DNA of 64,000 bases from Candidatus Bathyarchaeota archaeon (GCA_963806535.1 CAWDYC010000005.1:288001-352000); one strand, 5' to 3'. Numbered from the stretch's first letter, positions 8,992-51,131 are shown. Notes: a model not told the origin generated them from the sequence alone. Numbers and translations: made by a program.

Positions 8992-9285
8992 ATGTCGCTT
9001 TCTCAGTCAGAACTCGAAGAGCTTGTTCGCAAAGCATTGCACTTATACAACAGGGTTAGGAGCCCCGAAGTCACAGCCAAACTCATATTTGTTTCACCAG
9101 CCATCATCACTATTTCTTTTTCTGGAGGCTTCTGCTATGGCTGCGGCATATTTGACATTGTTGAAGGTTTCGCTAATCAATTCAAAACATTCAGCGGCAA
9201 AGCAGAACTTAAAGTAGGCAAGACAAGACAAATTAATCCAAGAACCTTCGAAGCAGACTACACCCTAAAAATAAAATCAAATTAA
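8992..9285 (+). CDS. Small hypothetical protein with FSGGFCxxCG motif (NifU-C-like metal-binding)
   Basis: 97-aa ORF directly after pyrK; CYGC motif. Confidence 0.55.
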   Translation: MSLSQSELEELVRKALHLYNRVRSPEVTAKLIFVSPAIITISFSGGFCYGCGIFDIVEGFANQFKTFSGKAELKVGKTRQINPRTFEADYTLKIKSN

Positions 9286-9297
9286 CTTTCAGGTTTT

Positions 9298-30409: not shown

Positions 30410-31156
30410 CTAAGCCTGATTTTCAGTTATCCTCTTTTTTAGTTTAATTTCAAGAATTCCATTGTGGTAACTCGATTCAACTATCTCTTTCTCCACTATA
30501 GTTGGAAGATCTATTTTCTTGCAGTATGCTTTTGTTAGGGTGCTAAGATTTATTTTCAGACTCTTGCCTTCTGCCCTTAATTCTATTTCGTTCTCTTTAA
30601 CACATGGCAATTCAGTCGTTACGCGCAGGTAGTCCCCTTCTTCGAAGATGTCAACTATGGGGTCTCTTTCCTTTATTGTTCCTACTGACTGAGGCAAAAT
30701 TATATTTGCTCTCGGAGATTGTTTAAGTGGTTTTCTGATTTTTATTCCATTATTCGAAGGTTGTGTAGTGGAGCTTGCCTTTATCGGACGAGAACTTAAT
30801 CGGAAATCCACTGCTCCACCTTTTCCAAAGCTAATTGTTTTCTGCATTGTGTATTTCCCTTTGGATTTTTCTGCCAACGTGCCTAAATCGTTCACCAAAC
30901 TAAGTAAACCATTTCCCTTTTTGTCATTCGTCATAATCGATCCATTTAATATCTCAAAACCAAAACTGAGAATTCCGTCTAAAGCCTTGTTTTGATCTTT
31001 GATCTTAACATTTTTCTCTTTTTCGGGAGTTTTGGTTGTCTCCGCTTCGGATTTTTTTGGAGGCTGAATTTCTTTTTCGCTGAACGCAATATCCTTCTCT
31101 AGCTTTTTATTTTTCTTTTTTTCGCTCTTATTATTGATTTTTGGTTTTTTCATCAA
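30410..31156 (-). CDS. Hsp20/alpha-crystallin domain protein with long Lys-rich N-terminus (GvpH-like)
   Basis: PIVDIFEE, TELPCV, YHNGILEIKL. Confidence 0.8.
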   Translation of the reverse strand: MMKKPKINNKSEKKKNKKLEKDIAFSEKEIQPPKKSEAETTKTPEKEKNVKIKDQNKALDGILSFGFEILNGSIMTNDKKGNGLLSLVNDLGTLAEKSKGKYTMQKTISFGKGGAVDFRLSSRPIKASSTTQPSNNGIKIRKPLKQSPRANIILPQSVGTIKERDPIVDIFEEGDYLRVTTELPCVKENEIELRAEGKSLKINLSTLTKAYCKKIDLPTIVEKEIVESSYHNGILEIKLKKRITENQA

Positions 31157-32156
31157 AATCCTCTTTCTTCATTTGTTCTGGATAACTTATTTCTAGTAAT
31201 TCAAGATATGAGTCTGGATTTGCAAAATACTTAGCTTCAAGAGGTAGATTTCTTTGCACTGCCAAATGTATTCCGTTAATACCATATTTTTCTAAGATTT
31301 TTCTTGCCAGCGGATACCCCAAGTAATATGAAGCACCTTTGATTATCTGGGCGTGCTTCAGAACTTCTTCTAATATTTTTTGTGAGTTTGATTCTTCAAG
31401 CCCGGTCTGGAATGTTTTTTCAGATACTATATTTTTTCGTCTGGTCTCGATGCTCGATAATAGCCCAATGCATTTCAGATAGCCTGTCTGAAGTTCCTTA
31501 TCGGAAAGAGCTGCTTCTTCAGCGTAATTCATGTTTTTTAGAGTTTGAAGGGCTATAGCTTCGCAACTTCCTTCTTTAAAGACAGTTTTGAAAATAGCTT
31601 CAAAATACAGATCTAATATTTGCTGCAAACGTATAGGTTCAAAGTTTCCTTTGGCTTCGAAATACAGTCTCACAGCATTCTCTGTTGAGGTCTTTTGTGT
31701 CGTTGATTTGAGAGACGCAAGAAGTTTTTCTGCCAGTTCATGAGCGCATACTAAGACAACTTTTTCGGGAAAATTAATTGTCATTTCCTCGTTCAAATAC
31801 AATGTTTCGTTTTGAGGATTATAGAAAGCAAAATGGTTAGATAATCCTGCGGTTTGATCGCAAGTAAGAGCCTTTGAAATTTGTATCCATTGAATATTGT
31901 TTTTTGTTATGCCACTACTTCTAAGGTCGCTTCTTATGCGTCGCGTTAGGTGTTTTTTAAATTCGGATTGTTGGAGTATTAGAACATCTCTAAAAAAAGG
32001 AAAATTCACATTGAAGAATTTGATCATCTGAGAATGAATCTCTCTGAGCCGATGGCAAATTTCTTCTTGGTTTATTTTGGAATCGCTTTCTTGGAATGCT
32101 GACGCTTGATATTCTGGGGATATTGTTTTTTTCATCAAAGGTTTTCTCCAGAGCAT
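31131..32156 (-). CDS. Hypothetical zincin-like protein (HELAE...EGSCE)
   Basis: [42 protein letters not shown]. Confidence 0.5.
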
Positions 32157-34306
32157 TGGACCAATTTTTTGCGTTCTTTCATCTTATTGATGGCAGCTTG
32201 CATGTCTTCCATGGATATTTCAAGTTTGGTTTTTATTTCGGATGCCTTCACTTTTTCGCTTAGAAAACGGCGAATAGCGAACATCGTAGCTTCTCGACAT
32301 ACTCCGTCTATGTCCGCTCCGGTACAACCTTCGGTTTCTTCAACGAGTTTTTCAAATGAAACATTTTTTGCAAGTGGGTTCTTTGCGGTGTGTATTTTGA
32401 AAATTTCAAGCCTAGCCTCAGTTTCTGGAGTTGGAACTTGAAGAATAAGGTCGAATCGCCCAGTTCTCAGCAAAGCGGGATCAATTATGTCGATTCGATT
32501 TGTAGCTGCTAGAACCATGACACCGTGAAGTTCTTCTAAGCCGTCAATTTCAGTGAGGAATTGGCTAATTACTCTCTCCGACGTGTGAGCATCCGATATT
32601 CCGCTTCCACGTTTAGGAACCAATGCGTCTATCTCATCAAAGAAAACGATGCATGGAGCTGATTGTTTTGCTTTCCGAAAGATTTCTCTTACGCCTTTTT
32701 CGGATTCTCCCACAAATTTGTTCATAAGGGCTGGACCTTTTACATGGATAAAGTTAGCTTCGCTCTCTTTGGCAACTGCTTTCGCCAAAAGTGTCTTTCC
32801 CGTTCCGGGGGGGCCAAAAAGGATTATGCCCTTAGGAGGTTTGGCCCCGGCTTCTTTATAGATATCTGCGTATTTCAAAGGCCATTCTATAGCTTCCATA
32901 AGCTCTTGTTTCAATTCGTGAAGACCGCCGATATTTTCCCAAGAAACATTAGGTGTTTCAATTAGAACCTCTCTTAGAGCTGAGGGTTCAACAAAGCGCA
33001 ACGCGTCCTGAAAATCATCCATTCTTACTACTAGTTTGTTGAGCACTTCAGCCGCAATTAATTCGGCTTCAAAGTCAATCTCCGGCAAAATTCTTCGTAG
33101 TGCCTTCATGGCAGCTTCTTTGCAGAGCTCTGTTAAATCTGCGCCAGTGAAGCCATGAGTCAGATTCGACAGAATCATAAGGTCAACTTCTGGTGTAAGA
33201 GGCATACCTCGAGTGTGGATTTGGAGGATTTCAAAACGACCCTCTCTTGTTGGCATTCCTATCTCCACCTCTCGGTCAAATCTACCACCCCTTCGTAGGG
33301 CAGGATCGATTGCATTGGGTCTATTTGTTGCTCCGATGACCACCACTTGTCCGCGTGGTTCTAGCCCGTCCATCAAAGACAGCAGCTGAGATACTACCCT
33401 CTTTTCAACTTCTCCAGTAACTTCTTCTCTTTTCGGAGCTATTGCATCAATCTCATCAATGAATATGATGCAGGGTTTATTCTGTGCAGCTTGGGTGAAT
33501 ATCTCCCTTAAACGACCCTCTGATTCACCGTAGAATTTGCCATGAATTTCTCCGCCGCTAATGCTAATAAAAGTAGCAAAGGTTTCGTTCGCAACTGCCT
33601 TCGCAATAAGCGTTTTTCCAGTTCCAGGTGGACCATGTAGCAAAACTCCTTTGGGTGGTTCTATGCCAAGTCGGTCAAACACTTCTGGGTGACGAAGTGG
33701 CAACTCAATCATCTCTCTGGTCCTTTGAATTTGTTCGGACAGCCCGCCAACATCATCATAAGTGGAACCGAATCGTCTTCCCGTTTCGGCTGTTTTTTCT
33801 CGAATAACGATTTCCGTTGTCGAATGTAATATGGCAGCTGCGCCGTTAGGCTTAATGCGGACAACAATGAAGGAGACGCTTGAGCCTAAAAGTGTAAGCC
33901 GAATCTGGTCTCCTTCAACTAATGGTAAGCCATCCAAGAGGTTACGCACATGTTCTAATGGTTTTTCTCCCCCCCGCCAAGATTGGTCTTGCTCAAGTGG
34001 TGCAAGTGTAACTTTTTCTGCATCCACAACATCGATTTTCCTCACAGAAACGCAGTCGCCAATTCCAACAAAAGAATTGTTCCGTATTATTCCGTCTATT
34101 TGGATTAGATTCTTTCCCCGGTTTTCAGGGTAGGACGGCATGATTTTTGCAACAGTCCTTTTCTTGCCCATTATCTGAATGATGTCACCTGTCTGCGCCT
34201 GAATTTCTTTCATAATTTGAGGATCTATTCTTGCTATTCCTCGACCGAAGTCTCTAAGCGATGCTTCGTCAACGCGCAATGTTGAATTTGGGATGGTTTC
34301 TGACAT
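32135..34306 (-). CDS. cdc48: CDC48/VAT family AAA+ ATPase
   Basis: N-domain GRGIARID; two GPPGTGKT Walker A; IDEID/FDEID; [13 protein letters not shown]. Confidence 0.95.
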
Positions 34307-34410
34307 TAGTTTTTACCTTCGCAAATTAGACTACTACTTTACTTTTAGTTAATAACTAAATGTATATATACCTTTTGTTGTATTCTCATTGTCGAGGAAG
34401 AAGGCAAGAT

Positions 34411-35018
34411 ATGGAGCCAACAGGCAAATTTCTCCAAATAGTCGGAAACGAAACCCGCAGAAAAATACTCACCCTACTTTCTCAAAAACCACACTACATT
34501 TCCGAAATAGCCAAAAAATTGGAAATCACCCAACCAGCAATACTCAAGCACCTAAGCATCCTTCAAGAAGCAGGACTTATTGAAAGCTTTCGAGAAGAAA
34601 GCCCCTTAGGAGCAGCAAGGAAATATTATAGAATCTGCCACACAGTAGGCGTAGAAGTAGCCATCAATCCCAAAAGCTTCAGCGTGAACAAACAACTTGA
34701 AACAAAAAGTTGCCCAACATATTTGGAAATAGAAAAGACAATAAAAAAATTGACGGAACAAATAAACCGAAATCAAAGATCTGGTTACAAAAGCGAGTAA
34801 AGCAAGAGTATTAATAAAAAACGCTGAGACACTTTTAGCGTGCAAGGACTTTGAAAAAGGGAAACTGGATTTGCGAAACATGCCGTCAAATGGCTATATT
34901 AAGGAAAAAAACTTCGCAAATAATATTGCATGTTTCAAACGGTGATATCGATTCAGGTTTGCGCCAGCTTATGGATGCAATAAACCTCATTTCACCAAAA
35001 TTTGCAGCCAAATCCTAA
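34411..35018 (+). CDS. ArsR/SmtB family regulator (frameshifted C-terminus)
   Basis: GNETRRKIL, YISEIA..TQPAILKHLSILQEAGLI, ARKYY. Confidence 0.8.
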
Positions 35019-35098
35019 ATTATAGATGAATCAAATTTGACAAGCAAATTTCAGATTGCTATATCTAAAAATATGGTTATGTTCAAAGCAGCTTCTAA

Positions 35099-35671
35099 CT
35101 AATTCAACTGTCGTTTTTTTAGCCTTGCTTGCAAGATATTATTCTTGTAAATAAATTTCACAGGATCTTCCGTAATTGATGCTGGAAGCTTTATCTTCTC
35201 TAAATATTTCCTAATATCGTTCTCCGCAGTAATAGTAACGAAGTCTTCTCCCACGTTCATATTGACGTCTTTTTCGTTCATACCAGGCAATTCTGCTAAA
35301 ACTATTACGTATTCATCCTCTTCAAAAACATCCACAATCGGCTGTTTTTCTTCTCTAAAACCCAATAACGAAGGATATTGCTTTTTTGTTGCAGACTTTC
35401 TAAAACCACACCTTTTTGCTGGAGCCTTTATAAAGTGTAAACTAGCCGGATGCCTGTGAGCAAAAATCACCTTTTTGGTTTGTGTTTGAGAAAAAGTGTT
35501 GTTTTCGAAACGAACAAAATGTGCGCATTTATTACAACATTGCACCAGCACTTTGTCGTTCTTTATGTTTCTTACCATCGGACAAAAAACCCATTCAGCA
35601 TCCTGAATACCTCGGACCAGCAATTTGGTTTTGCCTTTCCTGAAAGCTACCCGACAGATCATCCACATCAA
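35099..35671 (-). CDS. Hsp20-fold protein with Cys-rich N-terminus
   Basis: CP..CCNKC; PIVDVFEE, AELPG, YKNNILQ. Confidence 0.75.
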   Translation of the reverse strand: MMWMICRVAFRKGKTKLLVRGIQDAEWVFCPMVRNIKNDKVLVQCCNKCAHFVRFENNTFSQTQTKKVIFAHRHPASLHFIKAPAKRCGFRKSATKKQYPSLLGFREEKQPIVDVFEEDEYVIVLAELPGMNEKDVNMNVGEDFVTITAENDIRKYLEKIKLPASITEDPVKFIYKNNILQARLKKRQLN

Positions 35672-35947: not shown

Positions 35948-36175
35948 ATGGTGCAACAAAGTCCAGATTCAGGTAGTTTGGCAGAAGTAATCGATCGCAT
36001 AATGGACAAAGGTATAGTCGTCGATGCTTGGGCAAGAGCTTCACTGGTTGGAATCGAAATTCTCACCATCGAGGCACGTGTCGTAGTCGCTTCAGTCGAT
36101 ACATTCCTACATTACGCAGAAGAAATCACAAAGGTCGAACAAGCAGCAATAGCTACTCCTGTTCCAGCGTCCTAA
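35948..36175 (+). CDS. gvpA: Gas vesicle major structural protein GvpA (copy 1)
   Basis: [51 protein letters not shown]. Confidence 0.97.
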
Positions 36176-36254: not shown

Positions 36255-36482
36255 ATGGTGCAACAAAGTCCAGATTCAGGTAGTTTGGCAGAAGTAATCG
36301 ATCGCATAATGGACAAAGGTATAGTCGTCGATGCTTGGGCAAGAGCTTCACTGGTTGGAATCGAAATTCTCACCATCGAGGCACGTGTCGTAGTCGCTTC
36401 AGTCGATACATTCCTACATTACGCAGAAGAAATCACAAAGGTCGAACAAGCAGCAATAGCTACTCCTGTTCCAGCGTCCTAA
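36255..36482 (+). CDS. gvpA: Gas vesicle major structural protein GvpA (identical copy 2)
   Basis: Identical to copy 1. Confidence 0.95.
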
Positions 36483-36511: not shown

Positions 36512-36892
36512 ATGAAAAAAATGTCTAAACAAAAAACAAAAAATCAAAAAGGGACAGCAACTGAAACAACGAAGAAAACTACTCCAAATCCAAATTCCGT
36601 AAATGGCAAGAAAAAACTTTACCAGCAAACCGCCATCAATTTCCAGCAAGCCGCAAACGAAATGCTCGCAGAAGGTATCTGTAACCTTCAAACGGGCGTT
36701 TCCAGTATGCAGAAAAGCATCAATCAAACCACAATCAATTTCCAAAAAGCTGCCAACAAAATGCATGCAGACGGTGCAAACAACCTAAGATCGGGCGTCG
36801 CTGAAATGATGACTGGTATCGCTGCCATGCAAGCTAGCATAGCCAATCAAGCAAAAGCCCAGCAAGAATACATTAAACAGTTCTACGGATGA
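36512..36892 (+). CDS. Putative GvpC-like helical repeat protein
   Basis: Lies between gvpA and gvpN; two 33-aa repeats QTxINFQxAANxMxAxG..NL..GV; followed by a T-tract. Confidence 0.6.
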   Translation: MKKMSKQKTKNQKGTATETTKKTTPNPNSVNGKKKLYQQTAINFQQAANEMLAEGICNLQTGVSSMQKSINQTTINFQKAANKMHADGANNLRSGVAEMMTGIAAMQASIANQAKAQQEYIKQFYG

Positions 36893-37375: not shown

Positions 37376-38437
37376 ATGAAATACATGCCAACTCATCAGA
37401 GAGTTGTTCGCGGAAAACGAGTTCATGAAACCTTGGAAGAAAGGCAAACTAAAGTTTCCGATGAAACAAAACATCCGGAACTCTCAATCGATAAAATAGA
37501 AACAGAGTTCCTAACTCCCTCAATCGAAAGTTTTATTGAAACCGTACAAGTCAGAAAGTTAAAAGACAGAATTAGACTCTGGGTTAAAGCTTCATGTCAC
37601 CCCCATATTGTCGGCCCCACTGGTTGCGGAAAAACAACAATGGCAATGCAAGTAGCAAAAGAATTGGGCAGACCAACAGTATGGATAAACGGCGATGATC
37701 AAATAACAACAACAGACTTAATCGGTGGATACTCAGAAATGGAAGCTGAAAGTCTGGTAGACAAATACATCCATAACGTCAGGGTAACTAAGGACAAGAC
37801 AAAATACAGATGGGTTGACAATCCGTTAACACTCGCTTGTAAACATGGCTACACATTAGTCTATAATGAATTCTCGAGATCAAAGCCAGAAGCCAACAAC
37901 GTTCTGCTATCAGTATTAGAAGAACACGTTTTAGAACTCCCAACTATGTTTGGAGAAGAAAGATACGTCAAGGTTCATCCAGATTTCAAAGTGATATTCA
38001 CAAGTAACTCTGTGGAGTATGCAGGAGTACACAGACCACAAGATGCCCTATTGGACAGAATGATAGATCTTCACATGGATTATTACGACTTTGATACTGA
38101 AGTAAAAATTGTTAGAGCGCATTCCCACATCTCAATGGTCGAGGCGAAAAATATTGTCAAAATCGTTCGGACATTAAGAGAAGAACTGCCTGCCCCTCAT
38201 AAACCTGGCACACGGGCTGAAATCATGATTTCTAAAGGCCTCAAAGCTATGGGCAAGTATTCAAAAGAAGACTTTGAACAAATTTGCTTAGATGTGCTCG
38301 CAACAAAAATAGGCAATCCAACGGAAATTCCTAAAAAAATTGATTTCATAAAGGAAATGCTAAGTGATGCTCACTCAAACATACAGAAAAACCGGTCCGA
38401 TTTTATAGTACCAGAAATCGGGGTTTGCACGACTTAG
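37376..38437 (+). CDS. gvpN: Gas vesicle AAA+ ATPase GvpN
   Basis: GPTGCGKTT, WVDNPLTLAC, YNEFSRSKPEANNVLLSVLEE, FTSNSVEYAGVH..QDALLDR. Confidence 0.95.
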   Translation: MKYMPTHQRVVRGKRVHETLEERQTKVSDETKHPELSIDKIETEFLTPSIESFIETVQVRKLKDRIRLWVKASCHPHIVGPTGCGKTTMAMQVAKELGRPTVWINGDDQITTTDLIGGYSEMEAESLVDKYIHNVRVTKDKTKYRWVDNPLTLACKHGYTLVYNEFSRSKPEANNVLLSVLEEHVLELPTMFGEERYVKVHPDFKVIFTSNSVEYAGVHRPQDALLDRMIDLHMDYYDFDTEVKIVRAHSHISMVEAKNIVKIVRTLREELPAPHKPGTRAEIMISKGLKAMGKYSKEDFEQICLDVLATKIGNPTEIPKKIDFIKEMLSDAHSNIQKNRSDFIVPEIGVCTT

Positions 38438-38459
38438 GATCTCATTGAAAGGAGACTAA

Positions 38460-38750
38460 ATGAAAATGGCGTTAGAGAAGATCTCTCTTTTCAAAGTCAC
38501 GGAAGTAGCATTTGATGCAGCAAAAAGATTTCTTTCCAAAAATCCAGAGACTATCATAGATATAAAAGAAAAAAAAGACGAATGGGCTGTCACTATTGAA
38601 GTACTGCAGAGAAAGTCAATACCTGACACACAAGATCTTCTCGCAAGATATGTAATAAGAATAGGCAAAGATGGACAAGTAATAGGCTGGACCCAGAAAA
38701 TGGTCAGAAAGCGAAGCGATCGAATTTCACCTGAAACAACAGAGGAATAG
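38460..38750 (+). CDS. gvpO: Gas vesicle protein GvpO
   Basis: WAVTIEVLQRKSIPDTQDLLARY. Confidence 0.88.
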   Translation: MKMALEKISLFKVTEVAFDAAKRFLSKNPETIIDIKEKKDEWAVTIEVLQRKSIPDTQDLLARYVIRIGKDGQVIGWTQKMVRKRSDRISPETTEE

Positions 38751-38775
38751 GAAGATAACTAAGGAATGAAAACAC

Positions 38776-39597
38776 ATGGAAACTGCAACACTCTCTCAAC
38801 AGCTTCTGAATATGGACACTATTAATCCTAAACATGCTCTTCACTTGTATGCCCCAAATGTCGATAAGTATTCGATTCAAAATGCCTTCTTGATTTCCTC
38901 TCGACTCGGCCAAAAAATAATTTATGTTACTGCTGACAGCAGCGCCTTGCTAATAAAAGAGTTTAATCATGTAGGAGGAAAATTAAGAGTTGTTTCCCCA
39001 AGTGAACTATACGAACTCAAAAAAGAAGATTTTGAACAACAACTTATTGTCGATGCAGGTTCGTTAATCAATCAAGAATATGCGGAAATTGAAAGAAGGG
39101 AAAGCTTTCTAAATGAGTTATGCCTAAAGCGCAACTTAAACTGCTTATGTACGTACGACGTTACGAAATTCAACTTTGAAAAGATCAAGCAATTAGCTTC
39201 ACTCCATAAAGAACTTTGCTTAACAACAAATGATCTCACAATATTATCTGGTGATTTCTTTGATGAATCAACATTGTCAGCCGAATCGGTTGAAAAAATA
39301 GTAAAAGACAACTTAGAAAACGTGATTTTAGCGATTCTTCAGAAGAACATGATGTGCGGAACAGAAATAATCGGAACTATACACTTGAAGTTTAACGTGT
39401 TGCTTAGTCCGGGAACAATATATCCGATGCTTCATTCGTTGAAACAGAAAGGATTATTGACGTTTAAGAAATCAGGCAAAGAAATAGTTTATGGACCAGT
39501 CGAAGATGCTAAACCCAGAATAAGAAATCTGGTTAATGAGCATATTCAAGCTCACTCAGTTCTAAACCATTACCTGCAACAAGAACTAAAAATCTAG
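38776..39597 (+). CDS. MEDS-like sensor domain fused to a PadR wHTH
   Basis: HALHLY, IIYVT, ESFLN, CLCTYD, LH; C-terminal LSPGTIYPMLHSLKQKGLL. Confidence 0.65.
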   Translation: METATLSQQLLNMDTINPKHALHLYAPNVDKYSIQNAFLISSRLGQKIIYVTADSSALLIKEFNHVGGKLRVVSPSELYELKKEDFEQQLIVDAGSLINQEYAEIERRESFLNELCLKRNLNCLCTYDVTKFNFEKIKQLASLHKELCLTTNDLTILSGDFFDESTLSAESVEKIVKDNLENVILAILQKNMMCGTEIIGTIHLKFNVLLSPGTIYPMLHSLKQKGLLTFKKSGKEIVYGPVEDAKPRIRNLVNEHIQAHSVLNHYLQQELKI

Positions 39598-39608: not shown

Positions 39609-40268
39609 ATGAAAAGAGAAGAAGGAAAATACTTTTACTGCGCAATAAAAAGCAACGAAGTGAAAAACTTTGGCAAAATAGGTCTCGGCAACGAAGAAGT
39701 CTACACCATTCCATGTGGAGACATAGCTGCAGTTGTCAGTGACTCTCCAATGACTGATTACGAATTGACCGAAGATAACACAAAGAAACATGAGAACGTA
39801 ATTAAAGAAATAATGAATCAATACTCAGTTGTACCAACGGAATTTGGGACCACAATAAAAAATGAAATAATCCTAAAACGCTTGCTAAAGAAAGCCTACA
39901 ACCCTACAGCAGAATCCCTAAAACTCGTTGAAAACATGGTTGAACTCGGAGTGAAAATTGTGCAAACCGATAAAACCGTTTTCGTAGACGATCAACAGAA
40001 AAAAACATTGGCCTCTGAAATTACTGAGTCTTTAAAATCAAAATCAAAAGAAACAGTTACGTGTGACTTATTTAGCGAGAGACTTGTTTTAAATGCCTCT
40101 TTTTTGGTTAACAAAGAACGGATAGATGCTTTCTCGGATGAAATTGAAATCTTGCAGATTAAATATCCAAAACTAAAGTTTCTCTATAGTGGACCCTGGG
40201 CACCGCATAACTTTGTATATATAAAAATTGGCACCGAAGGCGTGGAAATAAAGAAAAAGCAGGAGTAA
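39609..40268 (+). CDS. gvpF: GvpF/L family gas vesicle protein
   Basis: GKYFYCAI, IAAVVSD, HENVI, VVPTEFGT, SGPWAPHNF. Confidence 0.9.
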   Translation: MKREEGKYFYCAIKSNEVKNFGKIGLGNEEVYTIPCGDIAAVVSDSPMTDYELTEDNTKKHENVIKEIMNQYSVVPTEFGTTIKNEIILKRLLKKAYNPTAESLKLVENMVELGVKIVQTDKTVFVDDQQKKTLASEITESLKSKSKETVTCDLFSERLVLNASFLVNKERIDAFSDEIEILQIKYPKLKFLYSGPWAPHNFVYIKIGTEGVEIKKKQE

Positions 40269-40272: not shown

Positions 40273-40563
40273 ATGCCATTTTTCATAGACGATATATTTC
40301 TAGAAATGCTTGGCCTCTCTGTGCCGCCATTTGATATGATCTGGCTTATGGAGACAATCATGGATTATGGTGACGAAGGAAGAGTTAAAGAAAATCAACG
40401 AAGAATCAACAATGAATTAAGAGAAAATAGGCTACTCTATGAACTTGGCGAAATAACCAAGGAAGAATATGAAAAAAACAATAGTGAACTTTGCCATCAA
40501 CGCCTAATGAACAAACGATTAAACATTGTGCGTCCCAGTCAGAGAATAAACATTCTAGGATAA
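40273..40563 (+). CDS. gvpG: Gas vesicle protein GvpG
   Basis: FFIDDIF, LRENRLLYELGEITKEEYE. Confidence 0.85.
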   Translation: MPFFIDDIFLEMLGLSVPPFDMIWLMETIMDYGDEGRVKENQRRINNELRENRLLYELGEITKEEYEKNNSELCHQRLMNKRLNIVRPSQRINILG

Positions 40564-40583: not shown

Positions 40584-40748
40584 ATGATAGAAACACAAAA
40601 AAAATTAGTTAATCCAAAACGTTCAGAAAATCGAAGTGAAAAGGCGAATTCAGGATTAGAATTAGCCTTATTCTCAGAAAAAATAGGTATCTGTTCAATC
40701 AATAGGAGAAATGTCATTTGTCCAATAGATCACGAGATACCACCCTAG
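40584..40748 (+). CDS. Possible 54-aa ORF filling the gvpG-gvpJ gap (GvpI position)
   Basis: Open frame MIETQKKLVNPKRSENRSEK..; overlaps the next gene by 31 nt; weak RBS. Confidence 0.3.
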   Translation: MIETQKKLVNPKRSENRSEKANSGLELALFSEKIGICSINRRNVICPIDHEIPP

Positions 40749-41041
40749 TCAGCCTATTAGACGTAATACTAGACAAGGGCGTCACAGTAGATGCAAGGGC
40801 AAAGATTCGCTTTAGTAACATCGATCTTTTGGACACTAAAACTCGTATAATCCTTTCATCTTTTGAGACAGCTAAAAGAATTGGTTTGAAGTTTCCCGAA
40901 AATACTAATTTGAACACCCAATCATGGCAATCCTTAGCAACAATGCAGTCGTGCCTTAACTGTGGCAAAGAAATCAACCAAGAGGAACTTCATAGCGAGT
41001 GCCCATGGTGTGGATGGGTCAACAAACAAAATTGGAGGTAG
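40718..41041 (+). CDS. GvpJ/GvpA-family protein with C-terminal Zn ribbon
   Basis: LVSLLDVILDKGVTVDA..SSFETA; CLNC..CPWCG. Confidence 0.8.
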   Translation: MSNRSRDTTLVSLLDVILDKGVTVDARAKIRFSNIDLLDTKTRIILSSFETAKRIGLKFPENTNLNTQSWQSLATMQSCLNCGKEINQEELHSECPWCGWVNKQNWR

Positions 41042-41046: not shown

Positions 41047-41430
41047 ATGGAGAACATGACTTTAACGCCTGAAAAAGAACATTCTGGATTAGCTGACGCA
41101 ATCGATAGAATACTAGATAAGGGATTAGTGATTAACGCAGACATCGCTATCAGTGTTGCTGGAGTGGAACTGCTCGGAATAAAAATCAGAGCTGCTCTTG
41201 CTTCTTTTGAGACTGCAGCGAAATATGGACTAGAATTTCCATCAGGAACCAATCTAGATACAGCCGCCTGGAAAAACGCCGCAATAGAAAAAGAAGATTG
41301 CCCGCAATGCAGCAAAGAAGTTAACAGAGAAGAACTGCTGAACTTCGCATGTCCCTGGTGCGGATGGGAAAGCGCCAGAGCCAAGAAACTAAAACCAATG
41401 AAAGTTGGAGTGAAGGTGGGTGTAAATTGA
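41047..41430 (+). CDS. gvpJ: Gas vesicle protein GvpJ with C-terminal Zn ribbon
   Basis: LADAIDRILDKGLVINADIAISVAGVELLGIKIRAALASFETAAKYGLEFP; CPQC..CPWCG. Confidence 0.9.
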   Translation: MENMTLTPEKEHSGLADAIDRILDKGLVINADIAISVAGVELLGIKIRAALASFETAAKYGLEFPSGTNLDTAAWKNAAIEKEDCPQCSKEVNREELLNFACPWCGWESARAKKLKPMKVGVKVGVN

Positions 41431-41969
41431 GTTCATTAAAGAATCTTGATGATCTTCTTGACGCTTTGGACGAAAAAAGCAAGCAGATGACGGTATATCT
41501 CTTGAACGAGCGCCATGCAGAGTTAAGAGAGTTGGCTAACCTGATTTGTGCCGCTTCAGATATGGAAGTCCTCATGATAATTAGAGAAATCATTAACCCT
41601 AAAGCTAAAGAAATCGTGGGTAAACCCATCGTTTCTTTTCAACGGTCAAAAATGGATTCGTTGACCGGCGAAATGATCATGTTTAGTTGGTGGGTTGATG
41701 AATATCTCGCAAGCAGTGTTCGTACTGAGGAACTATTAGATATTATAGATGAAGAAGATATCATAAGAATTGTTGCGGAGTTGCCTTCAACAGAGAAACA
41801 AATCCAAGTAAAATTAGCAGAGTCTCATCTAATAATATCTGGACGACAATACTACAAAGAACTCTCACTCCCTTGCCTCGTCAAAGATAAAATTGAAAAA
41901 ACCATCAACAACGGCGTTTTAGAAGTAAAATTAAACAAAAAGGCGGTATTACATTGCCAATTGAAATAA
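41427..41969 (+). CDS. GvpH-like protein (wHTH-like N-terminus plus Hsp20-fold C-terminus)
   Basis: IVAELP, INNGVLEVKL; located inside the gvp operon. Confidence 0.65.
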   Translation: MSSLKNLDDLLDALDEKSKQMTVYLLNERHAELRELANLICAASDMEVLMIIREIINPKAKEIVGKPIVSFQRSKMDSLTGEMIMFSWWVDEYLASSVRTEELLDIIDEEDIIRIVAELPSTEKQIQVKLAESHLIISGRQYYKELSLPCLVKDKIEKTINNGVLEVKLNKKAVLHCQLK

Positions 41970-42271
41970 ATGAGAGCGATCTGAAATCAGGGCTTCTTGG
42001 AGTAATTGTTACTCTAGTTGAAGTTATACAAGATGTTCTTGAAAGAGAAGCTATACGGAGAATGGAGTCAGGCAGGCTAAACGCTGAAGAAATAGAAAGA
42101 TTAGGAAAGGGATTGATGGAGCTTGATGAAGCACTTGAAAACATCAAAGAAGAAAATTCTCTCCAATCTATAGTTAGATCTTTACGAACAGACATGGACC
42201 GATTAGTGGAAGACACTATTGATCTCATGGCTAATCCAGAAAATATGGCTATTAAGAGTGACTCCAAATGA
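41954..42271 (+). CDS. gvpK: Gas vesicle protein GvpK
   Basis: LVEVIQDVLEREAIRRMESGRLNAEEIERLG. Confidence 0.92.
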   Translation: MPIEINESDLKSGLLGVIVTLVEVIQDVLEREAIRRMESGRLNAEEIERLGKGLMELDEALENIKEENSLQSIVRSLRTDMDRLVEDTIDLMANPENMAIKSDSK

Positions 42272-43074
42272 CTCAAACATGCGTTAGTGAAGAAGGAAGA
42301 TACCTCTATTGTGTCATCAATAGTGGAATCGAAAAGAATTTTGGGCAAGTAGGCGTTGAAGATAGCACCGTTAGTGTAGTTGCTTTCAAAGACATTGGTG
42401 TAGTTGTCCACTCATGTAAAGCAAAGCCCTATGAAACAAAGTCAAAAGAAGAAGCGGGCGAGTGGATTTTAGCTCACCAATACGTTATTGATCTTGCAAC
42501 AGTTGAATACGGAACCGTTATTCCGTTAACCTTCGATACAATTTTCAAGGGAAACGACAAAACTCTCACGGATTGGCTCAATGAGGAGTACGCTTATCTT
42601 AAAGCTATGCTAGCAAAACTCGAAGGAAAAGCTGAATACGGAGTTCAGGTTTTCATTAAAAACGAAACTTTTGAAAAATCACTGAGTAACAATGAAGAAA
42701 TCATTGGTTTAGAAAAAAAACTTGAAAACACAAGCAGCGGTGCAAGTTACCTAATTAGAAAGAAGCTGGAACAAAAAATGCAGCTTGAAAAACAGCTTAT
42801 AATAGGCAACTACACAAAAAATCTTTGTTGCCAAATCGAGAAAGTTGTCGACGATATAAAGTTTAGTTCAACAAGCAAAGAAGTTCCCAAGCAATGGCAA
42901 GACCAACAAATGATTCTAAACATAACTTGCCTAGCAAAAAAAGAGAAAATCGGAACCTTAGGAAGTGTGCTAGGGCTTCTTAAGAATGAAGGGTTTGCTG
43001 TTAGATTTACTGGACCTTGGCCGCCTTACTCTTTTGTTGGGCAAATGAGTAAATCAAAAATAAGGGGAAACTAA
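42268..43074 (+). CDS. gvpL: GvpL/F family gas vesicle protein
   Basis: GRYLYCVI, WILAHQYVID, TVIPLTFDTIF, EYGV, RFTGPWPPYSF. Confidence 0.9.
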   Translation: MTQTCVSEEGRYLYCVINSGIEKNFGQVGVEDSTVSVVAFKDIGVVVHSCKAKPYETKSKEEAGEWILAHQYVIDLATVEYGTVIPLTFDTIFKGNDKTLTDWLNEEYAYLKAMLAKLEGKAEYGVQVFIKNETFEKSLSNNEEIIGLEKKLENTSSGASYLIRKKLEQKMQLEKQLIIGNYTKNLCCQIEKVVDDIKFSSTSKEVPKQWQDQQMILNITCLAKKEKIGTLGSVLGLLKNEGFAVRFTGPWPPYSFVGQMSKSKIRGN

Positions 43075-43076
43075 AA

Positions 43077-44057
43077 ATGGCAAAATACATTTATGGAATC
43101 ATAAACTCAGATGACAAAAAAAACTTTGGAAACATTGGAATGGATAACGGCGAAACTTACAGTGTCCAATTCGAAGATATATGCGCTGTTGTGAGTGATG
43201 TGTTTGAAGACTGCAGAATTGGCGTCGAAGAAGCGAGAATTCATGATAAAGTTTTACGAAAGATTATGGATCCTTATTCCGTGATTCCAATGGGTTTCGG
43301 ATCAATAGCGAAGAATGACGCAGAGATAAAGAACATTCTAAAACGGGGTAAAATGAAACTTAAGAACACCTTGGAAAAAGTTGATAATAAATTGCAAATT
43401 GACATAAAGATTTCTTGGGATAAAACAATCCTTGCAATCATCTTAAAGGAAAATACCAAAATCCAAGAGCTAATCAATGCAGCTAAGGAAAACACGGATC
43501 AATCAAGCAGAATTGAGTTAGGCAGAAAAGTTAAATCAGCGCTTGATGAAAAGAAAGCTAAATATTTAGCCCACATAGAAAATTCACTGAAGAGCTTTTC
43601 AATGGATTTTGAAGAGAACAAAAACGTAGACCAAGACACTATTTTGAATGCTGCTTTCTTGATTGATAAAAACCAAGAGCAAGAATTCTACGCTAAATTG
43701 ACTGATTTAGAGAAAAAATATGATGGTAAACTTAAGTTTCTCTCCGTTGGTCCGTTGCCAGCTTATAATTTTACAAAAATCGTTGTTGGAAGAATAGATT
43801 ATGAAGCCTTAGAGGAAGCAAGGAGAACATTGGGTTTAAGTCAAGAAGTTAGCATATCTGAGATTAACTCAGCATATAGCAGTTTGGCACGAAAATATCA
43901 TCCTGATCTCCATCCAAACGATCCATCAAGTGAGAAAAAATTCAAGAAAATAATAGAAGCCAAATCTTTAATGGAAAGATATTGTGAACATTACCTTTGC
44001 TCGATTGAGAAAACAAAAGTTGAAGAAAACATCATTGTCGAGGAAAAAACTAGCTAA
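43077..44057 (+). CDS. GvpF/L family protein fused to a C-terminal J-domain
   Basis: KYIYGII, VIPMGFG, GPLPAYNF; then ARRTLGL..SISEINSAYSSLARKYHPDLHP..EKKFKKIIEA. Confidence 0.88.
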   Translation: MAKYIYGIINSDDKKNFGNIGMDNGETYSVQFEDICAVVSDVFEDCRIGVEEARIHDKVLRKIMDPYSVIPMGFGSIAKNDAEIKNILKRGKMKLKNTLEKVDNKLQIDIKISWDKTILAIILKENTKIQELINAAKENTDQSSRIELGRKVKSALDEKKAKYLAHIENSLKSFSMDFEENKNVDQDTILNAAFLIDKNQEQEFYAKLTDLEKKYDGKLKFLSVGPLPAYNFTKIVVGRIDYEALEEARRTLGLSQEVSISEINSAYSSLARKYHPDLHPNDPSSEKKFKKIIEAKSLMERYCEHYLCSIEKTKVEENIIVEEKTS

Positions 44058-44073
44058 ACTGTTCAGGTGTATA

Positions 44074-46002
44074 ATGATGATTCGAACAATCGGGATTGAT
44101 CTTGGGACTTCTAATTCTGCGGCTGCCGTTATGAAAGATGGAAAAATAAGACTTGTTCCGGCCGTCGAAGGACAAAATGTTTATGGGAAAATGTTTCCTT
44201 CAATTGTCGCTTTCAAAGTAGATGGGGAAATACTTGTTGGCAAAGATGCCAAAAAATACTCTTACGAACACCCTGAACGAACCGTTAGATGGATTAAGAG
44301 AAAAATAGGAACAGATTACACTGAGAACATCGATGGCCAATCATATAGCCCCCAAGAAATATCGGCTATGATTCTCAAAAAGATAAAAAAAGATGCTGAA
44401 AACTACATAGGCGAAAAAATAGAAAAGGCAGTAATTTCTGCGCCAGCCTACTTTAATAATAATCAAAGGAATGCAACTAAAGAAGCTGGGGAAATAGCCG
44501 GTTTTGAAGTTTTAAGAATAGTGAGTGAACCCACCGCAGCTTCATTAGCTTATGGTCTAGATAAGGTGGGTAAAAATCTGAAAGTAGCAGTGCTAGATTT
44601 GGGCGCTGGAACTTTCGATGTGACCATACTGGAGATGAACAAAGGGCTATTTCAGGTTCTGTCTACCAGCGGAGATATTCATCTTGGAGGCAAGGACATG
44701 GATGATTCGATTCTAGAGTACCTTCTGGAAGAAGTTGAAGAGAAACATGGCGTTTGCTTAGAGAACAATTCTAAAAACCTAAACTTGCTAAGAGATGCTG
44801 GAGAAATCGCCAAGATTCAACTTTCAACCAAACACTCAACCTCGATAGATACTGGAATCAAACTTAACCATTCCAAAAAAAGAATTAGCATAAGTTTGAC
44901 TCGAAAAAAGCTTGAACAGTTAATTAATCCACAACTTGAGAGATTACTAAATCCAATAGAAAACTCTCTTAAAGACTCCGGCTTAAGTTCTCAGAATATA
45001 GATAAATTAATTTTAGTAGGAGGACCAACCAGGATGCCCATAGTTAGAAAATACTTTGGAACTTATTTTAAAACAAAACCTGAAGTAGGCATAGACCCCA
45101 TGGGAATAGTTGCTACAGGTGCCAGCGTTCAAGCAAGTGTCTTGAATGGCGAAATAAAAGAAATGCTATTGCTAGACGTTACTCCCCTATCTTTGGGAGT
45201 TGAGACATCAGGCGGACTCTTTACAAGGCTAATCAAACGAAACAGTACGATTCCAACAGAGGAAAACATGACTTTTGCCACCCAAGAAGATTACCAAACA
45301 TCAATGATGATCCATGTCTTACAAGGTGAACGCGAAATGGCTAAAGATAATACTTCCGTAGGGTTGTTTAAAATCGACTGTATCCCAAAGGCACCCAAAT
45401 ACGAACAAAAAGTGGAAGTAACATTCAAAATAGATACAAACGGCATTTTGATTGTCTCCGCTGAAATCTTGGAAACAGGAAAAATTGAAGCTATCAAGAT
45501 TTCAGAGACAAGCAATCTTTCGCAGGATGAAATTATCAAGAGAATTATTGAAGCAACTAAGTTCAACGAGACGGACGAGAAAGAAAAAGAGTGCATCGAA
45601 ATTCAAAATCAAGCTGCAGCCACGATCCAATCTACAAAGAGATTTATTGAAGAGGCAGGAGGAAAAATCTCTCCTGAAGATAAGAAAAAACTTGAAACGG
45701 GTTTGCACCACTTACAAACAGCCATGAAAGCACATGAACCTCCGAGAGTTAAGTTATCTACTAGTAAACTTCTCGAACTTAAGGACGGTCTAATTGCAAA
45801 AACGAAAAAGGTAGGCCAAGCAAAGGTGTTACTTTCCGCTGCGGAAAAAAGATTAGGTAGCAAAGTATCTGAAAAGAAAAAGAAAGAGCTCAAGGCATCA
45901 ATAAGAAAGATTGAGCAAGCGTCACAGGAATGCGTAACTCAAGAGTTCATTAATTTAAGAGAAATGCTTGTTTTGTTAGAGGCGGATTGCGGAGAGGATT
46001 AA
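44074..46002 (+). CDS. dnaK: Hsp70/DnaK family chaperone (gvp-operon paralog)
   Basis: IGIDLGTSNS, PAYFNNNQR, EPTAA, DLGAGTFDV, LVGGPTRMP, LLLDVTPLSLGVET, VLQGERE. Confidence 0.9.
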   Translation: MMIRTIGIDLGTSNSAAAVMKDGKIRLVPAVEGQNVYGKMFPSIVAFKVDGEILVGKDAKKYSYEHPERTVRWIKRKIGTDYTENIDGQSYSPQEISAMILKKIKKDAENYIGEKIEKAVISAPAYFNNNQRNATKEAGEIAGFEVLRIVSEPTAASLAYGLDKVGKNLKVAVLDLGAGTFDVTILEMNKGLFQVLSTSGDIHLGGKDMDDSILEYLLEEVEEKHGVCLENNSKNLNLLRDAGEIAKIQLSTKHSTSIDTGIKLNHSKKRISISLTRKKLEQLINPQLERLLNPIENSLKDSGLSSQNIDKLILVGGPTRMPIVRKYFGTYFKTKPEVGIDPMGIVATGASVQASVLNGEIKEMLLLDVTPLSLGVETSGGLFTRLIKRNSTIPTEENMTFATQEDYQTSMMIHVLQGEREMAKDNTSVGLFKIDCIPKAPKYEQKVEVTFKIDTNGILIVSAEILETGKIEAIKISETSNLSQDEIIKRIIEATKFNETDEKEKECIEIQNQAAATIQSTKRFIEEAGGKISPEDKKKLETGLHHLQTAMKAHEPPRVKLSTSKLLELKDGLIAKTKKVGQAKVLLSAAEKRLGSKVSEKKKKELKASIRKIEQASQECVTQEFINLREMLVLLEADCGED

Positions 46003-46003: not shown

Positions 46004-46606
46004 TTGCAACCTTCAAGGGATGGAGCTCTTGTCGATCTTATTGATAGAATTTTAGTCAAAGGCGTAATTCTTCATGCAGATGTAATAATTTCAGTTTCCG
46101 GTGTCCCACTAATTGGGATTAACCTGAAAGCTGCAATTGCTGGTTTGACTACTATGGTCGACTATGGGATGATGGGAACATGGGATGAACAAATCAGAAA
46201 AACCGTTCTAACTGAAAGCATCGAGGAAGCCCCATTAATTAAGGATGAGGAAATTATTCTAAAGACTTTTGGCTCATATTTTTGTCATAACAGATCTGTT
46301 TCTGGGGTATGGAGACCAGGCTTTCTTTATGTTACAAACAAAAGATTGTTCCTTTTCAAGAAGAACCCGAGTGAATTTTTGTTTGAGACCCCTATAGACA
46401 ACATAAAAGGATTGTCTGTCGATATGACCAGAAACTTGGAAGAAGAAAACAAGGCTCTTCAAGTTTTGGTTAAAAAAGATCTTACAACCACAGAGATAGT
46501 GTTAATTCGTACCGCAAAAAAAGATGTTCTAAAAAGTAAACTTGAAGAAATATTGGCAGAAACTAGGCAATCAGAAAAAGTTTTAGTTCCCGTTAATTTA
46601 ATCTAG
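46004..46606 (+). CDS. gvpM: GvpM/J-family protein with C-terminal PH/GRAM-like domain
   Basis: LVDLIDRILVKGVILHADVIISVSGVPLIGINLKAAIAG; WRPGFLYVTNKRLFLF. Confidence 0.78.
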   Translation: MQPSRDGALVDLIDRILVKGVILHADVIISVSGVPLIGINLKAAIAGLTTMVDYGMMGTWDEQIRKTVLTESIEEAPLIKDEEIILKTFGSYFCHNRSVSGVWRPGFLYVTNKRLFLFKKNPSEFLFETPIDNIKGLSVDMTRNLEEENKALQVLVKKDLTTTEIVLIRTAKKDVLKSKLEEILAETRQSEKVLVPVNLI

Positions 46607-46620: not shown

Positions 46621-47001
46621 CTATTTGGATCCACATTTTTTGATAAAGTTGGACAATATATTAGTGGACAAGTTAAAAGCAACTATTTTTTTTCTGAATA
46701 TCTCTTTTCCTTTTAACGTTAATTGGTAAAAAGTTTTTCCATCGTCTGAAACTGATTTTATCAACTGCTCATTTTCTAAACTGTGAAGCAAAGGATATAG
46801 TGTAGCTGGACTCAACAGAATACCAAACTCTTTATGGATTATAGCTATGATTTTATAGCCATAGGTTGATCTTCCATTCAACATTGACAGAATTACTATG
46901 TCCAAGAAAGTTTTGACGTGTTTCTCGATTGTTTGATCTTCAGGCATTAAATTATCTAAAAATGAAAACTCGAATTCGTTAGCATTTCTTGTTTCCAACA
47001 T
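46621..47001 (-). CDS. PadR family regulator
   Basis: YGYKII, LLSPATLYPLLHSLE, YQLTLKG. Confidence 0.88.
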   Translation of the reverse strand: MLETRNANEFEFSFLDNLMPEDQTIEKHVKTFLDIVILSMLNGRSTYGYKIIAIIHKEFGILLSPATLYPLLHSLENEQLIKSVSDDGKTFYQLTLKGKEIFRKKIVAFNLSTNILSNFIKKCGSK

Positions 47002-50594: not shown

Positions 50595-50628
50595 ACTTCG
50601 ATTATTCGATATATCGATTAAACGATAT
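50595..50628. promoter_or_regulatory. Tandem PadR-type operators overlapping the start of the padR gene
   Basis: ACTTCG-ATTATT-CGATAT and perfect ATATCG-ATTAAA-CGATAT. Confidence 0.65.
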
Positions 50629-51131
50629 TGGATCAAATGATGAAAATGTCTAGAGAAGATAAACGTCAAGAACATTATGAGCATCACCATCTAGGACGGG
50701 GGCTTCATCTGGGCAGGTGGGATAATCCCCACAGACGAGGAATCCTCCGGACATGGGTGTTCGTATTGCTTCAACAGGAACCAAGAAACGGCGCTGAAAT
50801 AATGAACCAAATAGAGTTAATCAGCCAAGGAAACTGGCGACCTTCACCAGGCTCAATTTACCCTCTGCTAGATCAACTCTGCAAAGAAGAAAGCATCAGC
50901 AAACGTGAAGACGGAAAATATGAAATCACCGAAAAAGGCAAAAAAGAATTCGAATGGCCTTACAGAATGCACACAAAACAACCACGTTCTGCAGATGGTG
51001 CAATAGAAGAAATGAACAGCTACATCTCTTATCTTGAAGACTTAAAACGCATGGACCCCTCCAAAATTGTCCCCAGCATAGATAAACTCAAAAATGTCAG
51101 AGACCGACTAACAACCTTACTTGACACATAG
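50628..51131 (+). CDS. PadR family regulator (His-rich N-terminus)
   Basis: NGAEIM, WRPSPGSIYPLL, YEITEKG. Confidence 0.9.
   Translation: MDQMMKMSREDKRQEHYEHHHLGRGLHLGRWDNPHRRGILRTWVFVLLQQEPRNGAEIMNQIELISQGNWRPSPGSIYPLLDQLCKEESISKREDGKYEITEKGKKEFEWPYRMHTKQPRSADGAIEEMNSYISYLEDLKRMDPSKIVPSIDKLKNVRDRLTTLLDT

Follow-up and report, generated by a model that had tools for sequence, protein, structure and literature searches.

Why would an archaeal gas-vesicle gene cluster encode a chaperone pair of its own? The question is raised by a 64,000-nucleotide stretch of DNA from a Candidatus Bathyarchaeota archaeon (GCA_963806535.1 CAWDYC010000005.1:288001-352000; hereafter the window). Within it, a gene for a GvpF-like protein with a C-terminal J-domain (the fusion) is directly followed by a gene for an Hsp70 (the cluster Hsp70). 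Both are part of a gas-vesicle (gvp) cluster that translations and Pfam matches place on the plus strand at approximately 35.9 to 46.6 kb. We consider it probable that the two proteins constitute a private, client-specific chaperone system of the gvp cluster that resembles HscB/HscA and handles aggregation-prone proteins of the GvpA family. The observations behind this reading are the domain architecture, an Hsp70 that is not the housekeeping copy, derived residues within it, the gene order, co-occurrence across genomes, and one genome in which the pair is the sole one found. From these we infer the identity of the client, independence from GrpE, and action in the direction of assembly.

The fusion open reading frame (ORF) encodes 326 amino acids, including ...SSLARKYHPDLHPNDP..., and matches two families. 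Residues 3-233 match GvpL_GvpF (PF06386; E 2.8e-51, 175.3 bits against a cut-off of 23.6), and residues 251-298 match DnaJ (PF00226; E 1.2e-12, 48.2 bits, gathering score 27.8). The J-domain spans approximately residues 242-303 with the HPD motif at H275-P276-D277, and a conserved tail occupies residues 304-326. An AlphaFold2 model built from 78 family members (mean predicted local distance difference test score 96.1, predicted template-modelling score 0.88) consists of a GvpF-like body, J-domain helices at 242-252, 260-274 and 283-303, and a short structured tail. Foldseek searches with this model return the GvpF structures 6L5D (6L5D_B, E 1.4e-15, template-modelling (TM) score 0.83) and 4QSG (TM 0.78; both target-normalised). 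The same searches return many J-domains, including chain B of 5NRO, with root-mean-square deviations of ~1.0 A over 50-51 residues. A sequence search of the PDB agrees with these matches.

The HPD motif is invariant in all 78 aligned fusions, which are 25-58% identical to that of the window, and it is also intact in a 33%-identical fusion from another genome (G258). The protein is a third paralogue alongside a plain gvpF and a plain gvpL. It is nearer to GvpF than to GvpL, both in NCBIfam scores (83.3 versus 44.5 bits, each under its cut-off) and in BLAST comparisons with the paralogues of a related genome, G029 (E 6.6e-29 for GvpF, 4.1e-12 for GvpL). No HSCB_C domain, G/F region, zinc-finger or C-terminal DnaJ domain was detected in the Pfam scan of the fusion. 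By profile, fold and HPD motif the fusion is a real J-domain protein, and it is best read as belonging to class C, the client-specific J-domain proteins.

The listed ORF of the cluster Hsp70 opens with a GTG at 43984. Its homologues begin at the position of ATG 44074 (MMIRTIGIDLG...), which is found 16 nt past the TAA of the fusion (44055-44057) and just after an AGGTG. The protein matches PF00012 with an E value of 7.6e-175 and consists of a nucleotide-binding domain (NBD), the linker LLLDVTPLSLG, a substrate-binding domain (SBD), a lid and a Lys-rich tail, aligning end to end with the DnaK structures 2V7Y and 2KHO. The lysine of the IKR motif, which we take to be DnaK K70, is retained, as are the 'EP' of the EPTAA motif (E171) and T199, while G197 is replaced by Ala. 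The protein scores below both NCBIfam DnaK models (NF001413, 646.2 versus 648 bits; TIGR02350, 644.3 versus 822.55) and below the HscA model TIGR01991 (491.8 versus 708.55). The housekeeping DnaK of the same host passes both DnaK cut-offs (856.1 and 851.2), and the two Hsp70s share 47% identity over 565 residues. The Hsp70 of the cluster is a diverged paralogue of DnaK and not the housekeeping copy.

The host is most likely a Bathyarchaeia metagenome-assembled genome (MAG), since its named homologues are annotated as Candidatus Bathyarchaeia. Its assembly (G000; 2.95 Mb in 12 contigs, 91.75% complete) contains in total two Hsp70 genes, two J-domains and a single GrpE. A canonical grpE-dnaK-dnaJ operon with a full class A DnaJ is located on contig C12; PF00226 matches the fusion and this dnaJ only, and PF01025 (GrpE) matches once, on C12. 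A preliminary description of the window had reported a GvpF/L domain followed in-frame by a J-domain with an intact HPD motif, an Hsp70 starting 16 nt downstream with a DVTPLSLG linker, and neither grpE nor a stand-alone dnaJ in the window. All of this holds: the Pfam scan that it proposed places both domains of the fusion above their cut-offs, the start and linker are as given above, and the sole grpE and stand-alone dnaJ of the assembly are on C12. It had also recognised that the Hsp70 might be the only DnaK of its host, which the C12 operon contradicts. Its description of the Hsp70 as dedicated agrees with the distance from DnaK and with a distribution confined to genomes that carry the fusion, described below.

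Residues of the cluster Hsp70 were mapped to E. coli DnaK numbering through the alignment to 2KHO and compared among 14 Bathyarchaeia cluster Hsp70s, seven cluster Hsp70s from bacteria and 29 canonical DnaKs. The contact residues for the HPD motif (R167, Q378, L391 and P419) are kept. Seven substitutions are fixed in the Bathyarchaeia clade: D148N, N170S, G197A, V436M, G468Y, P470Q and D490I. The position of D477 is never acidic in this clade; it is Lys in the window's protein and in genomes G031, G119 and G258, and Gln in G044. The arch residues are also derived, with M404S and A429Q in the window's protein and M404S/A and A429Q/E among the copies. The loop carrying the GrpE signature (ATGPKH, 290-295) is present in 29 of 29 canonical DnaKs and lost from all seven bacterial and all 14 Bathyarchaeia cluster Hsp70s, the latter having a two-residue deletion and no GPKH. 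A distant Hsp70 in G258 (50% identity) has the same derived states as the window's, indicating that these states are old.

Several of these positions have been characterized in other Hsp70s, as described by Mayer (2021, PMC8215388). D148 of DnaK is part of the route linking substrate binding with ATP hydrolysis, and M404 and A429 form an arch above the substrate. In HscA a Met replaces V436 and yields a shallow, selective pocket, and the GrpE signature is absent from both HscA and HscC, neither of which is believed to use GrpE. Given its derived pocket and allosteric residues and the loss of the GrpE signature, the cluster Hsp70 appears to be a client-restricted, GrpE-independent Hsp70, as far as can be judged from its sequence.

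Among the relatives of the host, the fusion and the cluster Hsp70 are found together or not at all. In a first sample of 61 genomes, comprising the host and its relatives, the full or partial fusion is present in four (G000, G029, G031 and G044); other matches are to the J-domain of the housekeeping DnaJ. Hsp70s of the gvp type, with 66-67% identity and an alignment reaching the C-terminus, occur in the same four genomes only, and neither partner is found alone in any. The remaining Hsp70s of the sample are 45-49% identical and align only to approximately residue 570. There are 19 genomes of the 61 without an Hsp70 match at E<=1e-30, and a general Hsp70 is therefore seemingly not required in this lineage. 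In a class-wide sample of 301 genomes, the fusion was identified in six at a threshold of E<=1e-40, three of them with an identity of only 33-34%. Each of the five besides the host has an Hsp70 directly downstream of the fusion, followed by a gene with a Gas_vesicle domain. The order of fusion, Hsp70 and GvpM-like gene is found in nine of the nine Bathyarchaeia fusion genomes examined, and the window's cluster is collinear with those of G029, G031, G119 and G258.

The strongest comparative evidence that the fusion and the Hsp70 work together, and do so without GrpE, comes from G119 (100% complete, 1% contamination). This genome carries a whole collinear gvp cluster (L151, G119:C66:7000-26000), in which the fusion is the sole J-domain found in the genome and the cluster Hsp70 the sole Hsp70; a whole-genome search for GrpE gave no match. 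The pair in G119 would be a minimal archaeal Hsp70 system.

Searches of a protein collection are in keeping with this association. All 120 of the 120 best matches to the fusion have both Pfam domains, and the 120 best matches to the Hsp70 are 63-100% identical to it. More than 30 fusion and Hsp70 matches can be paired by an equal longest-contig figure (e.g. 181241, 2229620, 1096759), as may be expected if the two genes share a contig.

The known partners of GvpF and GvpL suggest what the client might be. GvpF binds GvpA, GvpL binds GvpJ and GvpM, and GvpA, GvpJ and GvpM aggregate in the absence of chaperones; in the systems described by Pfeifer (2022, PMC9501494), homologues of GvpF and GvpL are indispensable for assembly. 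Aggregation of GvpA2 is reported to be proteotoxic in E. coli (PMC12848028). In the mechanism we propose, the GvpF-like domain would hold a very hydrophobic protein of the GvpA family, either GvpA or the product of the adjoining GvpM-like gene. The HPD motif of the J-domain would then dock on the cluster Hsp70 in its ATP form and trigger hydrolysis, upon which the altered pocket would clamp a specific segment of the client. Nucleotide exchange would proceed without GrpE, as in HscA, and the client would be released into a nascent or growing shell. The physical pairing of J-domain and Hsp70 in this scheme is likewise inferred.

Because the constant neighbour of the Hsp70 gene is GvpM-like, GvpM is no weaker a candidate client than GvpA. 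The preliminary description had the fusion recruiting the Hsp70 to GvpA. Its analogy to HscB/HscA is strengthened by the lost GrpE loop and by V436M; however, the choice of GvpA is not favoured by the gene order, in which the GvpM-like gene and not gvpA adjoins the Hsp70. A predicted complex of the fusion with GvpA has a median score of 0.46, and one unrelated control scores 0.49; this counts on neither side of the question of binding. A stronger formulation, which we put forward tentatively and with less than even confidence, is that the GvpM-like protein joins the fusion and the cluster Hsp70 in a self-contained machine, driven by ATP and independent of GrpE, by which gas vesicles are nucleated or shell subunits are fed into them. 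Such a machine would be the first case of an Hsp70 system devoted to the construction of an organelle with a protein shell, and for certain archaea, G119 among them, it would be the only Hsp70 system of the cell.

Some observations weigh against a dedicated pair of this kind, and the first concerns the interface. In DnaJ, residues R22, K26, R27, K48 and K51 position the J-domain on E206, D211, E217 and D477 of DnaK in the description of Mayer (2021, PMC8215388). The equivalent of R22 is basic in 3% of 150 Bathyarchaeia-type fusions compared with 75% of 112 others, that of K26 in 1% compared with 60%, and that of R27 in 28% compared with 46%. The equivalents of K48 and K51 are basic in 95% and 93% of the Bathyarchaeia-type fusions, the others not being comparable here due to variable loop lengths. 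The DnaJ of the host carries K, R and K in place of R22, K26 and R27. Helix II of the Bathyarchaeia-type J-domain thus lacks the basic residues that position DnaJ, and D477 of the Hsp70 is a Lys; the interface consequently departs from the solved one and might be weaker. The residues fit a diverged and possibly private interface and a weaker one equally well. Similarly, D148N means that the coupling of substrate to ATPase may differ from that in DnaK.

Two genomes and the bacterial relatives add to these points. In G029 the Hsp70 (L020, G029:C9:388000-406000, 7658-9623, minus strand) is split into ORFs of 230 and 426 amino acids, with a TGA within the match; this is either a frameshift or an assembly error. 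G044 (91% complete) has a trio on the minus strand (L022, G044:C4:1-14000, 4880-8105) consisting of an N-terminally truncated fusion of 223 amino acids, an intact Hsp70 of 642 amino acids and the GvpM-like gene; searches of this genome gave no further gene with a Gas_vesicle domain, no housekeeping DnaK and no GrpE. The trio may therefore not be strictly tied to gas vesicles, or it may be decaying there. Finally, in 41 of 50 genomes from other phyla that carry a fusion (see below), neither an Hsp70 on the fusion contig nor a cluster-type Hsp70 elsewhere was found, and a dedicated Hsp70 is therefore unnecessary for retention of the fusion.

The fusion family extends well beyond archaea. A full HMMER scan of 50%-identity cluster representatives yielded 155 matches at E<=1e-30. 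We scanned 147 of the best 150 with Pfam, and 132 of the 147 contain both GvpL_GvpF and DnaJ at E<=1e-3, 129 of them above the gathering score. A separate scan of one genome per species, seeded with a 16-row alignment whose members share FRCVGPLPP and therefore biased to loci with that motif, returned 136 relatives. The best 80 of these are all from MAGs or single-cell genomes. They belong to Ignavibacteria, Zixibacteria, Chloroflexota, Actinomycetota, Omnitrophota, Nitrospirota, Planctomycetota, Acidobacteria, NC10, Gemmatimonadota, Bacteroidetes, Elusimicrobiota, a Methanoperedens archaeon and others. A motif test places the fusion in 77 of the 80 best loci. The labelled gene just ahead of the fusion is Hsp20-like in 34 of the 80, possibly with unlabelled genes between.

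Whole-genome searches for Hsp70 were made in 50 of the 80 genomes, all of which have at least one. Six (G063, G070, G071, G073, G075 and G079) encode an Hsp70 on the contig of the fusion, 8-10 kb downstream, and G069, in which the cluster is split across two contigs, is a seventh case of an Hsp70 in a gvp cluster. The Hsp70s of G072 and G077 fall in the same clade as these bacterial cluster Hsp70s in our trees. Most of the bacterial fusions examined, having no Hsp70 on the same contig, presumably use the DnaK of the cell. The expectation in the preliminary description of a fusion with a dedicated Hsp70 thus stands for the Bathyarchaeia, in nine of nine genomes; however, it extends to only ~7 of 50 fusion genomes from other phyla. 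We had at one stage considered the dedicated Hsp70 to be confined to Bathyarchaeia, as BLAST searches of the 80 loci with flanks of up to 6 kb gave none, but the whole-genome searches overturned this by locating Hsp70s 8-10 kb downstream.

The genes of the bacterial Hsp70-bearing clusters run in the order gvpN, a TPR protein, Hsp20, a CDC48-like AAA+ ATPase directly upstream of the fusion, the fusion itself and two GvpF/L genes. These are followed by gvpO, an ArsA/Get3-like ATPase, gvpG and a protein with a DnaJ-type CxxCxGxG zinc finger, and then by a GvpJ-like gene (74-80% identity to that of the window), an Hsp20-like gene, gvpK, gvpL, a long GvpM-like gene and the Hsp70. Both gene orders therefore have the GvpM-like gene adjoining the Hsp70. 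The GvpM-like protein itself varies in length, from 80-88 amino acids without the extension in G258 and G354 to 349-371 in the bacterial clusters.

In quick maximum-likelihood trees the Bathyarchaeia cluster Hsp70s form a clade with support of 100 and a long stem (0.81) close to archaeal-type DnaKs. The bacterial cluster Hsp70s form another (support 99), and the two clades stand apart. A second tree was made without eight long or odd rows (G065_C48, G064_C62, x_G103_C39, x_G103_C161, x_G111_C115, x_G105_C6, x_G090_C79, x_G081_C49). The phylogeny against housekeeping DnaK that the preliminary description called for thus does place the Hsp70 in a separate, long-stemmed clade. However, a common origin with the bacterial clade is compatible with the data, as a single clade of both groups was not rejected by the approximately unbiased test (p 0.141).

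Comparison with known systems places the pair closest to HscB/HscA. As in that system, a class C J-protein with a client-binding domain outside the J-domain is encoded beside a specialised Hsp70, and the cluster Hsp70, like HscA, has no GrpE-signature loop and has Met at the position of DnaK V436. However, the fusion lacks HSCB_C, its client-binding part is a GvpF fold, and its J-domain is C-terminal where that of HscB is N-terminal. Unlike HscA, the cluster Hsp70 falls under the HscA cut-off and groups with archaeal-type DnaKs, and the pathway is gas-vesicle biogenesis. With GvpF and GvpL the fusion shares its fold (TM 0.78-0.83) and gene-cluster context, but it adds a C-terminal J-domain of approximately 90 residues and a conserved tail. 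The GvpF and GvpL proteins of Halobacterium, cyanobacteria, Bacillus and Serratia have neither J-domain nor tail as they are described in PMC9501494.

The pair has the NBD-linker-SBD-lid build, the catalytic and HPD-contact residues and the HPD-containing J-domain of DnaK/DnaJ/GrpE. In contrast to DnaK, the cluster Hsp70 is under the equivalog cut-offs, has no GrpE signature, carries changed arch and pocket residues, and has D148N. In contrast to DnaJ, the fusion has no G/F region, zinc-finger or C-terminal DnaJ domains and is not part of a grpE-dnaK-dnaJ operon. The resemblance to auxilin/Hsc70 is functional only: an Hsp70 is recruited to a protein shell by a J-domain attached to a shell-recognising domain. 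Homology is confined to the J-domain. Auxilin takes clathrin coats apart, and the Hsp70 of the window is a paralogue private to its cluster.

In the most probable alternative, the fusion marks misassembled GvpA aggregates or collapsed shells and the Hsp70, perhaps with the neighbouring CDC48-like protein and small heat-shock proteins, extracts and recycles the subunits in the manner of auxilin and Hsc70 on clathrin. Disaggregation systems usually consist of a small heat-shock protein, a J-protein, an Hsp70 and an AAA+ unfoldase, and the set encoded here matches this make-up. A CDC48-like AAA+ ATPase and three Hsp20-domain genes are located beside the cluster, and the bacterial Hsp70-bearing clusters place a CDC48-like gene directly ahead of the fusion. 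However, the genes from gvpF to the GvpM-like gene are tightly packed in one direction, which indicates co-expression with shell synthesis, and the GvpF and GvpL homologues of the systems covered in PMC9501494 are assembly factors. We regard such a quality-control role as rather unlikely, and favour the reading in which the pair delivers GvpA-family proteins to the shell.

It is a good deal less probable that the pair controls a gas-vesicle regulator or assembly factor and thereby couples vesicle output to the folding state of the cell. DnaK and DnaJ control sigma-32 in this manner, and PadR-type regulators are present in or beside the cluster (38776-39597, 46621-47001 and 29926-30315), the one that follows the GvpM-like gene being kept in G119. 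However, the J-domain is fused to a GvpF fold, the known partners of which are shell-family proteins in the account given in PMC9501494, and the gene that always adjoins the Hsp70 is a GvpM-like structural one and not a regulator. Least probable of all is that the pair has no dedicated role, in which case the Hsp70 is a surplus general chaperone carried along by the cluster and the J-domain draws on the general pool of Hsp70: most bacterial fusion genomes examined lack an Hsp70 in the cluster and all 50 contain at least one, and the sole copies found in G119 and G044 might act generally, but the derived pocket and allosteric states kept across deep divergence, the lost GrpE signature, the constant gene order in Bathyarchaeia and the 19 relatives without an Hsp70 match all argue against it.

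Full-text literature searches found no paper on a GvpF/L-J-domain fusion or on an Hsp70 in a gas-vesicle cluster. The main text of a census of J-proteins (PMC10410713) contains neither 'Gvp' nor 'vesicle', although the 2,712 class C architectures in its supplements may include the fusion, and the main text of a study of archaeal DnaK-DnaJ-GrpE (PMC12874294) does not contain 'Bathyarchae'. Public annotation labels these proteins 'GvpL/GvpF family gas vesicle protein', 'DnaJ-domain-containing protein 1' and 'molecular chaperone DnaK'. The contributions of the present analysis are the archaeal form with its adjacent Hsp70, the HscA-like residue evidence, the sole pair in G119 and the constant GvpM-like neighbour.

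How GvpA is kept soluble and inserted into the growing vesicle is a long-standing question, for which the pair provides a testable two-protein handle. In the studied systems, as presented by Pfeifer (2022, PMC9501494), only GvpF/L-type binders and the AAA+ protein GvpN are known. Heterologous expression of gas vesicles, as for ultrasound reporters, is described as limited by GvpA aggregation and proteotoxic stress (PMC12848028), and clusters that carry their own chaperones are candidate sources of parts for this purpose. If our reading is correct, the cluster Hsp70 would add a third kind to the specialised Hsp70s of prokaryotes, HscA-like in its altered pocket and missing GrpE signature. On the stronger and more tentative formulation given above, gas-vesicle assembly in many uncultured anaerobes would be powered by chaperones instead of being self-assembly with passive helpers.

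The features of the cluster and its surroundings are given in Table 1.

Table 1. Genes of the gas-vesicle cluster and its flanks (window coordinates)
Feature	Position	Strand	Basis or remark
PadR-type gene	29926-30315	+	
Hsp20-domain protein	30410-31156	-	Pfam; may belong to locus
341-aa protein, no assigned family	within 30410..35671	-	may belong to locus
CDC48-like AAA+ ATPase (CDC48_N and two AAA domains, 723-aa ORF)	32135-34306	-	Pfam; may belong to locus
ArsR gene	34360-34800	+	Pfam
Hsp20-like protein	35099-35671	-	Pfam; may belong to locus
gvpA, two identical copies	35948-36175 and 36255-36482	+	translations, Pfam
126-aa repeat protein, gvpC position, directly after gvpA	36512-36892	+	translation
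gvpN (AAA_5), gvpO, PadR/MEDS-type regulator (the last at 38776-39597)	37376..39597	+	Pfam
gvpF	39609-40268	+	Pfam
gvpG	40273-40563	+	Pfam
Two GvpJ/M-like genes, Cys-rich zinc-ribbon-like C-terminal tails	40718-41041, 41047-41430	+	Pfam Gas_vesicle
Small heat-shock-like protein, alpha-crystallin domain at residues 125-199, GvpH position	41349..41969	+	NCBIfam
gvpK	41954..42271	+	Pfam GvpK, E 5.4e-20
gvpL-like GvpL/GvpF paralogue without J-domain	42268..43074	+	Pfam, E 1.7e-55
Fusion, GvpF-like with C-terminal J-domain, 326 aa	43077..44057	+	Pfam
Cluster-specific Hsp70, 642 aa	44074..46002	+	PF00012
GvpM-like, N-terminal Gas_vesicle domain and C-terminal extension	46004..46606	+	Pfam Gas_vesicle, E 1.1e-12
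PadR-type gene	46621-47001	-	
PadR-type gene	50628-51131	+	

The genes from gvpF through the GvpM-like gene share one direction and either overlap or lie only a few bases apart, and they appear to form one operon for this reason. A search of sequencing runs listed none of RNA and two of DNA with small shares (0.12 and 0.07). A promoter and terminator scan, which used a model of bacterial signals, detected sites no more numerous than in shuffled sequences. The GvpM-like protein scores 91.5 bits against the NCBIfam GvpM cut-off of 109, and its C-terminal extension has a weak, below cut-off match to a bacterial PH domain (bPH_3, 18.2 bits). The translation of the 126-residue protein shows two internal repeats. 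The protein has counterparts in G029 (72% identity) and G031 (43%), matches no Pfam or NCBIfam family and may be a GvpC analogue.

Three genes with Hsp20/alpha-crystallin domains are found in or around the cluster. The one inside it, at the GvpH position, scores 54.1 bits with the NCBIfam archaeal Hsp20 model, under the cut-off of 140, and has no Pfam match; bacterial gvp clusters contain counterparts. The CDC48-like protein is 58% identical to that encoded in a Nitrospirota gvp cluster (L126:4033-6174) and 56% identical to two more paralogues on contig C3 of its own genome. Of the four PadR-type genes in or near the locus, the one inside the operon has a weak match to the MEDS sensory domain (22.6 bits, below cut-off).

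The Nitrospirota cluster also encodes a tandem ArsA/Get3-like ATPase of 654 amino acids (L126:9703-11667) and a TPR protein (1515-2249); neither type of gene is present among the scanned ORFs of the window's cluster. The Cys-rich tails of the two GvpJ/M-like proteins in the window score under the Pfam cut-offs for zinc-ribbon families. In the bacterial Hsp70-bearing clusters, DnaJ-type CxxCxGxG repeats occur instead in a free protein of 130 amino acids (L126:12374-12766).

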